Source: Escherichia coli
Lineage (GTDB): Bacteria > Pseudomonadota > Gammaproteobacteria > Enterobacterales > Enterobacteriaceae
Assembly (NCBI RefSeq): GCF_041886205.1
Contig: NZ_CP169029.1
Length of the DNA stretch: 64,000 nucleotides
Direction: 5' to 3' (one strand)
Under the pieces are notes generated by a model that saw only the letters and a program-made list of their open reading frames with translations, made no database searches and was not told the origin of the DNA. This document shows, one piece after another, positions 19,967 to 30,010 of this stretch. Position numbers and translations under genes: made by a program. Position 1 is the first letter of the stretch. Every line of letters begins with the position of its first letter.

Positions 19967-20416
19967 ATGAAGAAAACAACACTTGTGATTGGCGTTATTG
20001 GCGCGGACTGCCATGCAGTAGGCAATAAAGTTCTGGACCGCGTTTTTAGCAACCACGACTTCAGAGTCATTAATCTGGGCGTAATGGTCAGCCAGGACGA
20101 ATATATTGATGCTGCCATTGAAACTGGCGCTGACGCGATTGTCGTCTCCTCTATCTATGGGCATGGCGATATCGACTGTCTGGGCATGCGCGAACGCTGC
20201 ATCGAGCGTGGACTGGGGGACATCCTCCTCTATGTGGGCGGTAACCTGGTGGTCGGAAAACATGACTTCGCTGACGTGGAAACCAAGTTCAAAGAGATGG
20301 GATTTGATCGCGTCTTTGCCCCAAGTCATGACTTAGAAGATGTTTGTCAGCTGATGGCCCACGATATCAACCAACGTCATGACGTTGATACTCGCATTCT
20401 TGAAGAGGCAATCTGA
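19967..20416 (+). CDS. glmS: glutamate mutase sigma subunit (B12-binding, methylaspartate mutase S chain)
   Basis: 149 aa from [24 protein letters not shown] (DxHxxG cobalamin-binding motif); close to remembered clostridial GlmS/MutS; AAGGA RBS. Confidence 0.9.
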
Positions 20417-21804
20417 TGCAAATCGTCTCTGTCGATATTGGATCGACGTGGACCAAAGCAGCCCTCTTCACCCGGGAGGGGGACGCGTTAACGTTGGTTA
20501 ACCACGTACTGACCCCAACCACCACCCATCATCTGGCGAAGGGGTTTTTCTCCAGCCTGAACCAGGTGTTAAACGTAGATAATGCCCTCCCCCTGTTAAA
20601 CAGCGGTGAGGTTGCATTGAAGTATTCCTCCTCTGCCAAAGGTGGGCTGGCGGTTGCCGCAATGGGATTAGTGCCTTCTATCACCCTGGAAACCGCGAAA
20701 GTAACTGCTCACTCAGCGGGTGCTAAAATTGCGCAATATTATGCCTACAAGCTGAACCGCCGTGATATCCAGGCACTGGAAGAAACGCAGCCCGATATTC
20801 TCTTGTTCACCGGCGGCACCGACGGCGGAGAAGAAAGCTACGGACTGAATAACGCCCGTGTGCTGGCAGAATCCAAACTCGACTGCGCCATTATTTATGC
20901 CGGAAACCGGGATATTCAGGACGAGGTGCAGGAGATCCTCGGGCATAAAGACCTGACCATCGTCGACAACGTTCTGCCCGATCTTGACCATCCGAACCCT
21001 TTAGCTGCACGCCAGGCTATCTGCGACATATTCCTTAAACGCATCGTTAAAGGGAAAGGGCTGGATGTCATTGTTGATAAAACAGGCGAAGAACCAATGC
21101 CGACACCATGGACGGTCTTTGAACTGGTTAAGGCAATCAGTAACGTCGATCACAGCTGGAAAGAGTTCATGCTGATCGACATGGGCGGCGCAACCACCGA
21201 TGTTTATTCCGCCTGTGCCAACACGCTCTCGCCCGACACCGTTTTACACGGCGTACCGGAACCCTTCGTAAAACGGACGGTGGAAGGCGATCTGGGAATG
21301 CGCGTCTCGGCAGTGGTGGTTGGTGAAAGTGCGAAAGAGTTAGTCAATGTGAATTTTGCTCAGCAACCCGCACAGCTGGACGCTTTTTATCATTATCTCC
21401 GTCATTTAGTCGCTCATCCCGACTACTTACCCGCAAATGCAGAAGAGAAATATTTCGATACCGTCCTGGCCGGACTGTGTGTGGGTTATGCCACCGAAAG
21501 ACATGCGGGCACCAAAAAAGAGGTCTGCACCTGCGTCGGCAATGTCGATTTACAGATGGGACGCGACCTGACAACCGTGCGTAAAGTCGTGGGATCCGGC
21601 GGATGGCTCTCGCGTGCCAGTCAGTTCGATATGCATCACTGGTTGAAATACCGCGAGTTAAACGACGACGGTAAACGCATTCTCTTACCGACCGAATTTG
21701 AATATTACCGCGATTCCCGGGGGCTATTACCACTGCTGGCAAACGTCGCCAGAGTCGATCCTCTGGCCGCCGCGCGCACCAGTATTCAATGCTTAACCCT
21801 ATAA
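20416..21804 (+). CDS. glmL: glutamate mutase-associated protein GlmL/MutL (putative reactivating chaperone)
   Basis: 462 aa; start overlaps the glmS stop (ATGA); position between S and E subunits as in clostridial operons; N-terminus [18 protein letters not shown] is ASKHA/actin-like. Confidence 0.8.
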   Translation: MQIVSVDIGSTWTKAALFTREGDALTLVNHVLTPTTTHHLAKGFFSSLNQVLNVDNALPLLNSGEVALKYSSSAKGGLAVAAMGLVPSITLETAKVTAHSAGAKIAQYYAYKLNRRDIQALEETQPDILLFTGGTDGGEESYGLNNARVLAESKLDCAIIYAGNRDIQDEVQEILGHKDLTIVDNVLPDLDHPNPLAARQAICDIFLKRIVKGKGLDVIVDKTGEEPMPTPWTVFELVKAISNVDHSWKEFMLIDMGGATTDVYSACANTLSPDTVLHGVPEPFVKRTVEGDLGMRVSAVVVGESAKELVNVNFAQQPAQLDAFYHYLRHLVAHPDYLPANAEEKYFDTVLAGLCVGYATERHAGTKKEVCTCVGNVDLQMGRDLTTVRKVVGSGGWLSRASQFDMHHWLKYRELNDDGKRILLPTEFEYYRDSRGLLPLLANVARVDPLAAARTSIQCLTL

Positions 21805-21822
21805 CAATTAAGGCTGCAATCA

Positions 21823-27745: not shown

Positions 27746-29398
27746 ATGTCCAAACCTTTTATCTGGCAAGAACCGTTTCTACAAAATAAAGACGGTACAG
27801 AATATACATTAATTAGCGATCAACATATTACAGTAACGGAATTAGACGGCGAAGAAGTGATAAAAATCGCTCCTGAAGCATTAACGCTGCTTGCCCGGCA
27901 GGCATTTTATGAAGCCTCTTTTTTCTTACGTTCCGCTCATTTGCAACAGGTCGCCAGCATTCTTAACGATCCGCAGGCCAGTAGTAATGATAAATACGTT
28001 GCGTTGCAGTTATTACGTAATGCTGAAGTCTCAGCAAAAGGGGTATTACCCAACTGTCAGGATACCGGCACCGCAACTATTGTTGCCAGTAAAGGGCAAC
28101 AGATATGGACCGGAGGTAACGACGCCGAAGCCTTAAGCAAAGGCATTTACACCACTTTTCAGGAAAATAATCTGCGCTTTTCACAAAATGCGCCGCTGGA
28201 TATGTATACCGAAGTCAATACGCAAACCAATCTCCCGGCGCAGATTGATATCAGCGCTGTCGCTGGTAATGAGTACCATTTTCTCTGTGTTAATAAAGGG
28301 GGCGGCTCTGCCAATAAAGCCGCGCTTTATCAGGAAACCAAATCCTTATTGCAACCAGAAAAACTGACCGCATTTTTAATCGAAAAAATGAAATCGCTGG
28401 GCACCGCTGCCTGCCCGTCTTATCACATCGCCTTTGTCGTCGGAGGGCTTTCAGCCGATCAAACCTTAAAAGTTGCCAAGCTGGCTTCTACGAAATATTT
28501 CGACAATTTGCCCACCAGCGGAAACGAGCAGGGACAAGCATTCCGTGATATTGAGCTGGAAAAAGCGTTGCTCGAGGCCAGTCAGCAATTTGGTATTGGT
28601 GCGCAATTTGGGGGTAAATATTTCGCTCATGATATTCGCGTCATTCGTCTGCCGCGTCACGGTGGCTCTTGCCCGATAGCTATGGCGCTCTCCTGTTCAG
28701 CCGATCGCAATATCAAAGCAAAAATTAACAAACACGGTATCTGGCTGGAAAAACTCGAACACAATCCGGGGCAATATATTCCAGCCTCACTGCGGGAAGA
28801 AAATCACGCGCAACATGTACAACTGGATCTAAACCGTCCGTTGCGTGACGTGATGCAGGATCTCGCCAGATTACCGGTAGGCACCCGCGTGTCGTTAAGT
28901 GGTCCCATCGTAGTGGCGCGCGATATCGCCCACGCCAAAATAAAAGCGCGGCTGGATAGCGGCGAACCGATGCCGGATTACCTGAAGCATCATATTGTCT
29001 ATTACGCTGGCCCGGCGAAAACACCGGAGAACATGGCCTGCGGTTCACTGGGTCCAACCACGGGCGGTCGAATGGACGGTTATGTCGATACCTTCCAGGC
29101 GGCTGGCGGCAGTCTGGTGATGTTATCGAAAGGTAACCGCAGCCAGCAGGTCACCGATGCCTGTCACAAACATGGCGGCTTCAATCTGGGAAGTATTGGC
29201 GGTGCAGCTGCGTTACTGGCGCAAGAATATGTCAAAAGTCTGCGTTGCCTGGAATACCCGGAGCTGGGTATGGAAGCGGTGTGGATGATGGAAGTGGAAA
29301 ATCTGCCCGCATTCATCCTGGTAGATGATAAAGGCAATAATTTCTTTAGTCAGTTTGAGCAGCAACACCGCTGCGCCAGTTGCCCTGCGGGACATTAA
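27746..29398 (+). CDS. fumD: class I fumarate hydratase family protein (FumA/FumB paralogue; likely mesaconase/fumarase)
   Basis: 550 aa, the size of Fe-S class I fumarases with Cys ligands; located with glutamate mutase and methylaspartase, as remembered for FumD of E. coli O157:H7. Confidence 0.8.
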
Positions 29399-29407
29399 GG
29401 AAAATGA

Positions 29408-30010
29408 ATGGAAGCGCGAATTTCAACTGAACGGCATGTGCAGCGCCAACAGAAATTGAAGGAACAGGTCGATACGCGCGTCGCGGCGGCGATAGAGAAA
29501 AAAGGGATCTTGATTGTTTTCACCGGCAACGGCAAAGGGAAATCCACTGCCGCGTTTGGTACTGTGACGCGCGCGGTGGGTCATGGCAAAACGGTGGGGG
29601 TTGCGCAGTACATCAAGGGGCAATGGGACAACGGCGAATACAACCTTCTCCAGCCGCTGGGGGTTGAGTTTCATATTATGGGAACCGGTTTTACCTGGGA
29701 GACACAGAACCGGCAAGCGGATATCGACGCGGCGAAAGAGGTCTGGTCGGAAAGCAAACGGATGCTGGCTGACAAGCGTTACGACTTAGTGGTGCTTGAT
29801 GAGCTGACCTATATGCTGGCTTACCATTATCTGGATACCGAAGAAGTGATCGCTTCTCTGCAAAACCGCCCGGCACAACAAAGTGTCATTGTCACCGGAC
29901 GCGGTTGCCACAGTCAGATATTAAAAATGGCGGATACGGTAAGCGAAATCCGTCCCGTCAAACATGCTTTTGATAACGGCATTCAGGCCCAGCCGGGTAT
30001 CGACTGGTAA
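29408..30010 (+). CDS. cob(I)alamin adenosyltransferase (CobA/BtuR family) paralogue
   Basis: 200 aa with P-loop GNGKGKSTAAFG and strong similarity along its length to remembered E. coli BtuR; last gene of the operon. Confidence 0.88.
   Translation: MEARISTERHVQRQQKLKEQVDTRVAAAIEKKGILIVFTGNGKGKSTAAFGTVTRAVGHGKTVGVAQYIKGQWDNGEYNLLQPLGVEFHIMGTGFTWETQNRQADIDAAKEVWSESKRMLADKRYDLVVLDELTYMLAYHYLDTEEVIASLQNRPAQQSVIVTGRGCHSQILKMADTVSEIRPVKHAFDNGIQAQPGIDW

Follow-up and report, generated by a model that had tools for sequence, protein, structure and literature searches.

In the clostridia that ferment glutamate by way of 3-methylaspartate, mesaconate is handled by a two-subunit mesaconase, MesAB, and citramalate is cleaved by a citrate-lyase-type citramalate lyase, CitDEF, which depends on an acyl carrier protein (ACP) and is accompanied by CitCXG (PMC4682846). 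A corresponding gene cluster has been described in Escherichia coli O157:H7, where FumD was characterized as a mesaconase, and the cluster was reported from 26.5% of E. coli strains and from 90.6% of O157:H7 strains (PMC4682846). In that work a gene for a DUF1446 protein downstream of mal was noted as being of unknown function, and the fate of (S)-citramalate was left open (PMC4682846). Here we describe the corresponding region in a 64,000-nucleotide stretch of E. coli DNA (NCBI RefSeq assembly GCF_041886205.1, contig NZ_CP169029.1), referred to throughout as the window. Nine open reading frames (ORFs) stand in tandem on its plus strand between positions 19967 and 30010, in the order glmS-glmL-glmE-mal-cmlA-cmlB-symporter-fumD-cobO, and are followed by a convergent LysR gene. 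We consider it highly probable that this region forms an accessory catabolic operon, still intact, by which L-glutamate is degraded along the methylaspartate route, and that all steps of this route are encoded in cis. The cluster as such has already been described: its core has been known since Kronen & Berg (2015), and a structure and a name have meanwhile been deposited for the members that had stayed unexplained. The useful outcome of the present analysis is a corrected annotation, in which the pathway would be complete in cis.

The evidence for completeness lies foremost in the two genes that follow mal. The first, cmlA (24513..25883, plus strand), codes for a protein of 456 residues in the AtuA/DUF1446 family (Pfam PF07287, E 2e-18), and the second, cmlB (25880..26197, plus strand), for a DUF4387 protein of 105 residues (Pfam PF14330, E 3e-39); NCBIfam assigns the other seven of the nine ORFs and has no model for these two. 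The reading frames are adjacent and overlap by 4 nt in an ATGA, through which cmlB is translationally coupled to cmlA. Each protein matches one chain of the PDB entries 9ERQ and 9EVF at full length and without gaps, CmlA matching chain A at 92.3% identity (E 1.6e-292) and CmlB matching chain B at 84.6% identity over 104 residues (E 5e-57). The depositors named these chains "Citramalate lyase, subunit A (cmlA)" and "subunit B (cmlB)". Entry 9EVF, with adenosine diphosphate (ADP), is titled "Citramalate lyase - ADP - pyruvate complex" and was released on 2025-10-08; entry 9ERQ, with adenylyl imidodiphosphate (AMPPNP), is titled "Citramalate lyase - AMPPNP - citramalate complex" and was released on 2025-10-22. 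A predicted model superposes on the CmlAB crystal structure with a TM score of 0.94, and the CmlA proteins of the window and of the PDB entries fall into one 90%-identity cluster of 5597 members, mainly from Escherichia, Citrobacter and Klebsiella. Because the AtuA/DUF4387 pair matches both chains of 9ERQ/9EVF, we assign it as the citramalate lyase CmlAB, a sequence-based assignment that would place the lyase in cis. Beyond its own entries, the CmlAB family has no structural neighbor among PDB structures in a Foldseek search at E <= 1e-3.

Work on a close homologue adds to this picture. The cmlAB genes of Raoultella planticola have been used in E. coli, where mesaconate-dependent growth of an acetyl-coenzyme A (acetyl-CoA) auxotroph needed the cmlAB plasmid and labeling confirmed the flow of carbon to acetyl-CoA (bioRxiv 10.64898/2026.01.16.699985). 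Cleavage of (S)-citramalate by the CmlAB of the window is thus a prediction from close homologues. An earlier note on this DNA had called the two genes unknown, had stated that a citramalate lyase gene is missing in cis, and had proposed that citrate lyase, for example, might supply the last step. The first two statements give way to the full-length matches, with cmlAB sitting between mal and the symporter gene, and the third is contradicted by citrate-grown O157:H7 cells, in which citrate lyase activity was high and no citramalate lyase could be detected (PMC4682846). Citramalate lyase activity was absent wherever the activity of citrate lyase, isocitrate lyase or the methylcitrate cycle was high (PMC4682846). 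A classical ACP-dependent citramalate or citrate lyase complex within the island was also considered and rejected, for NCBIfam scans of the operon proteins and flanking ORFs gave no match to the CitD, CitE, CitF, CitC, CitX or CitG families, and the RefSeq annotation of the island contains no citrate-lyase-type gene.

Public annotation of cmlAB lags behind the structure. The PGAP pipeline labels cmlA an "acyclic terpene utilization AtuA family protein" and cmlB a "DUF4387 domain-containing protein," the Sakai record (L003 16934-18618) labels the pair "3-methylaspartate ammonia-lyase" and "acyl-CoA synthetase," and the wrong methylaspartase name is carried by several database homologues of the pair as well. 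Because the labels are outdated both in RefSeq and in older records, any automated reconstruction of the pathway will mistakenly report it as incomplete in roughly one-fifth of E. coli genomes. What becomes of citramalate in enterobacteria was explicitly left as a question in 2015; on the assignment made here, the genes between mal and the transporter would answer it.

The remaining enzymes fit the same route. The B12-binding small subunit of glutamate (methylaspartate) mutase is encoded by glmS (19967..20416, plus strand; NF002612, 253 bits against a cut-off of 110); its product is 61% identical to GlmS of Clostridium cochlearium and keeps the DxHxxG motif with its histidine lower ligand, D14-x-H16-x-x-G19 being aligned as G-A-D14-C-H16-A-V-G19. 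The gene glmL, or mutL (20416..21804, plus strand), codes for the accessory and reactivating protein of the mutase (NF040745, 510 bits against a cut-off of 475; TIGR01319, 897 bits), and glmE (21823..23268, plus strand) for the catalytic subunit (TIGR01503, 863 bits against a cut-off of 390), which shares 58% identity along its whole length with chain B of PDB 6H9E/1CCW from C. cochlearium. Residues R67, R99, R148, E170, Y176 and Y180 of GlmE align with R66, R100, R149, E171, Y177 and Y181 of the C. cochlearium protein, which comprise its substrate-binding arginines, Glu171 and the tyrosines. Together GlmS and GlmE are predicted to form a glutamate/3-methylaspartate mutase dependent on adenosylcobalamin (AdoCbl). 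The 3-methylaspartate ammonia-lyase gene, mal (23268..24509, plus strand; TIGR01502, 542 bits against a cut-off of 286), encodes a protein that aligns without gaps, near-identically and at full length with the Citrobacter amalonaticus MAL of PDB 1KKO (E 8e-269), and that keeps Q172, H194, D238, E273, D307, Q329 and K331 at identical positions. In this enzyme, which presumably has the enolase-superfamily fold, we take D238, E273 and D307 to be the Mg ligands and K331, H194 and Q329 to be catalytic. Mal is 99.3% identical to its orthologue in O157:H7 Sakai, and the MAL of O157:H7 is functional in vivo (bioRxiv 10.1101/2025.11.12.688011). The last gene of the series, cobO (29408..30010, plus strand), codes for a CobO/CobA-type adenosine triphosphate (ATP):cob(I)alamin adenosyltransferase (NF004637, 296 bits against a cut-off of 185; TIGR00708, 247 bits) with the P-loop GNGKGKST at residues 40-47, and is predicted to supply AdoCbl to the mutase.

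Mesaconate hydration would fall to fumD (27746..29398, plus strand), a class I (Fe-S) fumarase/mesaconase gene scoring 1279 bits against NF011921 (cut-off 1060). Its product is a fused class I fumarase with all three [4Fe-4S] cysteine motifs, C104, C223 and C317 lying in CQDTGT, AACP and SCSADR and aligning with Leishmania fumarate hydratase (5L2R). It is 98.4% identical to ECs_0757, a figure that refers to the Sakai protein, the characterized enzyme being that of O157:H7 ATCC 700728. Between fumD and cmlB stands the gene for a DAACS (SDF) dicarboxylate/amino acid:cation symporter (26358..27638, plus strand, with the start annotated by RefSeq). The earlier note had recognized the nine genes from the letters of the sequence, and its coordinates hold, as does its naming of the glutamate mutase S, L and E genes, methylaspartase, the DAACS symporter, the class I fumarase/mesaconase and the corrinoid adenosyltransferase, which is borne out by family scores; its statement that the cluster with FumD had been reported for O157:H7 was correct (PMC4682846). 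The residues whose loss it had named as fatal to its reading, the DxHxxG histidine of GlmS and the Fe-S cysteines of the hydratase, are all present in the alignments.

These genes are carried on an accessory island of 15.5 kb (17543..33078) that stands in place of 470 bp of the K-12 mngB-cydA intergenic region (blastn). On either side lie E. coli core genes, cydAB-ybgE-ybgC-tolQRA and mngBA-mngR-sucDC, which are 96-98% identical to those of K-12. The GC content of the island rises from 35% at its AT-rich ends to 52% in the core of the operon, and the part that it has in common with O157:H7 Sakai ends at position 30967 (blastn). Over 14 kb, the region matches E. coli strain wlxctx60 at 100% identity. 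Among 5426 complete E. coli genomes, 1138 (21%) carry this 14-kb query sequence at >=95% nucleotide identity, nearly always on the chromosome, and the earlier description of the pathway as unusual for E. coli was accordingly overstated. The lineages of the window and of Sakai have diverged by 4% at synonymous sites, and across ten genes they differ by 104 synonymous and 23 non-synonymous changes. Because the resulting ratio of non-synonymous to synonymous divergence (pN/pS) is 0.068, these genes are under purifying selection and are not relics. FumD alone accounts for 9 of the 23 non-synonymous differences and has a pN/pS of 0.22, while the remaining genes of the operon lie at 0.00-0.07 and the convergent LysR gene at 0.17; it is the most relaxed or the most diversifying enzyme-coding gene of the cluster.

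In the pathway that we propose, the DAACS symporter would import the substrate, presumably glutamate, and CobO would adenosylate salvaged cob(I)alamin to yield coenzyme B12. GlmS and GlmE, with GlmL as reactivase, would rearrange L-glutamate to (2S,3S)-3-methylaspartate, from which Mal would remove ammonia to give mesaconate; FumD would then hydrate mesaconate to (S)-citramalate, and C-C cleavage of citramalate by CmlAB would yield pyruvate and acetate. The pyruvate would be processed through pyruvate formate-lyase, Pta and AckA, a route of established E. coli physiology, to acetate, formate and ATP, and the fermentation as a whole would be redox-neutral. Since E. coli does not synthesize B12 de novo, the route would depend on exogenous corrinoid. 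The scheme draws on what others have demonstrated for close homologues, namely the mesaconase activity of FumD, the function of O157:H7 Mal in vivo and the cmlAB-dependent conversion of mesaconate-derived citramalate to acetate in E. coli. We infer further that the operon runs in the catabolic direction in its native host, that the symporter carries glutamate and that the LysR protein controls the operon.

Several observations weigh against such a reading. O157:H7 expressed the cluster under no condition tried, displayed no methylaspartase activity and did not grow anaerobically on glutamate, and its citrate-, acetate- and propionate-grown cells had no citramalate lyase activity (PMC4682846). 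A literature search found no primary paper on the kinetics or nucleotide requirement of CmlAB, so that its assignment rests on the depositors' names and titles together with one preprint, which treats acetate as the product without mention of ATP (bioRxiv 10.64898/2026.01.16.699985). A sigma-70 scan returned 21 sites where 25.5 were expected; because this is not above expectation, no promoter can be claimed. Finally, the symporter falls short of both equivalog cut-offs, reaching 313 of the 513 bits set for DctA and 304 of the 638 bits set for GltP, and its substrate is not assignable from sequence.

The AT-rich flanks of the island (35% GC), typical of silenced foreign DNA, and the established lack of de novo B12 synthesis in E. 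coli would both suit a relic, acquired horizontally and now silent, with no contribution to the physiology of its host. The absence of expression under any laboratory condition tried (PMC4682846) would suit it too. We nevertheless hold a relic to be extremely unlikely: all ten genes are intact with their catalytic residues, pN/pS is 0.068 between two lineages with 4% synonymous divergence, and 1138 complete genomes have kept the island at >=95% nucleotide identity. It is also conceivable that the pathway ends at (S)-citramalate, secreted or reused as a host-directed metabolite or isoleucine precursor, and that the AtuA/DUF4387 pair is unrelated to it. In the cells used for the 2015 assays that were negative for citramalate lyase, the cluster was not expressed, given that no methylaspartase activity was detected (PMC4682846); moreover, the pair matches a solved CmlAB (92% and 85%) crystallized with citramalate and with pyruvate, is translationally coupled to mal and is syntenic with mal across phyla, and we hold an ending at citramalate to be very unlikely. 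An operon that mainly serves the uptake and catabolism of external C5-dicarboxylates (mesaconate, methylaspartate or citramalate) instead of glutamate, or that works in reverse to synthesize glutamate, in either case with one of these acids imported by the symporter, would accord with the slightly higher score of the symporter for DctA, a C4-dicarboxylate carrier, than for GltP (both under cut-off), and with the reversibility of glutamate mutase and MAL, which have been made to work in the direction of glutamate in vivo (bioRxiv 10.1101/2025.11.12.688011). FumD, for its part, acts on fumarate too (PMC4682846). Yet a B12-dependent mutase, a reactivase and a dedicated adenosyltransferase are needed only if glutamate is substrate or product, the gene order from glmS to cmlB mirrors the catabolic sequence, and the same enzymes ferment glutamate in clostridia (PMC4682846), all of which makes service to external dicarboxylates or reversed synthesis unlikely. 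We thus retain the catabolic operon, complete in cis, as the preferred reading.

A further proposal concerns the nucleotide in the CmlAB crystals. Since AMPPNP was crystallized with the substrate and ADP with the product, the nucleotide may participate in the reaction, for instance through activation of the C4 carboxylate. By analogy, phosphorylation of this carboxylate would acidify C3, as the thioester does in citramalyl-CoA or citramalyl-ACP lyases. It is a tentative and still doubtful suggestion that CmlAB is a nucleotide-dependent C-C lyase acting via citramalyl phosphate and, jointly, that the island is silent but selected in E. coli. Under this joint suggestion, C4 phosphorylation may make retro-aldol cleavage feasible without a thioester, with release of either pyruvate and acetyl phosphate or pyruvate, acetate and phosphate, and the island may be turned on through the LysR regulator in dependence on gut corrinoid. 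The depositors of 9ERQ/9EVF probably know most of this already. If true, it would supply a CoA- and ACP-independent end to glutamate fermentation in E. coli, as well as the first chemistry for the large and otherwise uncharacterized AtuA/DUF1446 family. A complete, redox-neutral and B12-dependent glutamate route could matter for gut colonization by the lineages that carry it, including O157:H7.

The genes are closely packed. At the glmS/glmL junction (TGATG) and the glmE/mal junction (TAATG) the frames overlap by 1 nt, glmL and glmE are separated by 18 nt, mal and cmlA by 3 nt and fumD and cobO by 9 nt, and the only sizeable intergenic gaps are those before the symporter gene (160 nt, after cmlB) and before fumD (107 nt). 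The RefSeq start of glmS at 19967 is preceded by an AAGGA Shine-Dalgarno sequence 8 nt ahead of its ATG, and the cobO stop ends at 30010. An alternative in-frame ATG for glmS at 19904 was rejected as unsupported because the NCBIfam match begins only at residue 22 of the longer ORF. Ahead of glmS lies an AT-rich leader or promoter region of 486 bp on the plus strand (19481..19966, about 30% GC), with a weak sigma-70-like site at 19577-19604 in a scan that as a whole was not above chance. A riboswitch or other structured RNA in the operon region was considered and rejected, as an Rfam scan of positions 15000-35000 at E <= 1 returned no family, a B12 riboswitch included. Within the cmlB-symporter gap stands a hairpin (26279..26314, plus strand; stem and loop at 26281-26312) with a perfect 14-bp stem, its arms GTAGATGCCTGAAT and ATTCAGGCATCTAC, and a 4-nt loop (-24.8 kcal/mol, z -4.9). 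It is identical in Sakai, and the Aeromonas island described below has a different sequence at the same place. The hairpin may be an internal terminator or attenuator, an mRNA stabilizer or a protein-binding palindrome, and may split or attenuate the transcript. A second hairpin, with a GC-rich 11-bp stem, lies between the convergent stops of cobO and the LysR gene (30014..30040; -28.1 kcal/mol, z -5.7), was the top hit of the terminator scan and is likely a bidirectional terminator. The LysR-type gene itself (30044..30949, minus strand) is GcvA-like, scoring 220 bits against NF008352, below the cut-off of 288; it has been kept together with the island in Sakai and Aeromonas, and its product is presumed to be the pathway regulator. 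More distant clusters of this type have a LysR or a GntR gene ahead of glmS, the LysR gene being divergent and the GntR gene co-directional.

Genomic context was sampled for eight CmlA homologues of 62-90% identity. Seven of the eight loci, among them those of Candidatus Rifleibacterium, an Aeromonas isolate and several unrelated metagenome-assembled genomes, have the order glmS-(mutL)-glmE-mal-cmlA-cmlB; in the eighth, from an Accumulibacter genome, cmlAB stands alone. A class I fumarase gene is near four of the seven syntenic loci, directly downstream in L009 and L010, about 240 bp downstream in L004 and within 4 kb in L005. The island of Aeromonas sp. MdU4 (L011:5455-14976) is of the enterobacterial type and consists of glmS-glmL-glmE-mal-cmlA-cmlB-symporter-cobO with a convergent LysR gene, and its CmlA is 90% identical to that of the window; because it has no fumD, mesaconate hydration there would rely on a housekeeping class I fumarase. 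Directly after cmlB, all six sampled non-enterobacterial clusters have a conserved gene for a protein of 307-325 residues that has no Pfam family (L004:11712-12665, L005:11677-12618, L006:11698-12654, L008:11698-12621, L009:11706-12629 and L010:11720-12697). The copies from L004 and L005, which are 62% identical, have a Walker-A sequence, GAEGxGKSTL, with weak similarity to P-loop/ABC ATPases (best PDB E 2e-4), and the gene may encode an accessory nucleoside triphosphatase of the mutase or the lyase. It is missing from the E. coli and Aeromonas islands.

The outer parts of the island hold a few further ORFs. Two hypothetical, AT-rich ORFs (35% GC) lie ahead of glmS, at 17972-18916 (314 residues) and 18998-19480 (160 residues), the latter a frameshifted pseudogene according to RefSeq; their Sakai counterparts are ECs_0767 (96.5% identity) and ECs_0766. 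NCBIfam and PADLOC gave no match for either, and Pfam gave none for the 314-residue ORF. The latter was also compared with the P-loop gene of about 310 residues that follows cmlB in other phyla, and no similarity was found. At the other end, a full-length RtcB paralogue (31540-32937), a second gene of this RNA ligase family, is divergent from the LysR gene across an AT-rich spacer (30950-31539). It scores under the NCBIfam equivalog cut-offs, and a partial NCBIfam match had suggested an unusual N-terminus, an idea that was dropped because Pfam RtcB spans residues 63-465. RefSeq annotates no rtcA or rtcR beside it. A role of the flanking ORFs in defence was rejected, as neither the hypothetical ORFs nor RtcB had a PADLOC match.

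Among the known systems, the haloarchaeal methylaspartate cycle is an anaplerotic route in which mesaconate is activated to mesaconyl-CoA (PMC4682846); the window differs from it in that no CoA-transferase, mesaconyl-CoA hydratase or methylmalyl-CoA lyase is found among the ORFs and families of the island. The clostridial clusters of C. tetanomorphum, C. tetani and C. cochlearium share with the window the chemistry from glutamate to citramalate, and their GlmS, GlmE and Mal are 61%, 58% and roughly half identical to the proteins of the window, with the same catalytic residues. In place of the clostridial mesaconase and lyase, however, the window has a fused class I fumarase and a lyase of the unrelated CmlAB family. 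For the latter, the nearest solved relative, the CmlAB of 9ERQ/9EVF, has a sequence from another enterobacterium, listed under Klebsiella michiganensis, and the genes used in the preprint came from Raoultella planticola. A further close system is that of O157:H7 Sakai, whose island (ECs_0755-ECs_0767) lies between sucD and cydA and adjoins cydA as it does in the window; the two differ at the far boundary, where rtcB and mngAB (window 30968-38537) have been kept in the window strain and are lacking in Sakai. In the content and order of the pathway genes (ECs_0755-ECs_0764; PMC4682846) the two are alike, and their proteins are 98.4-100% identical.

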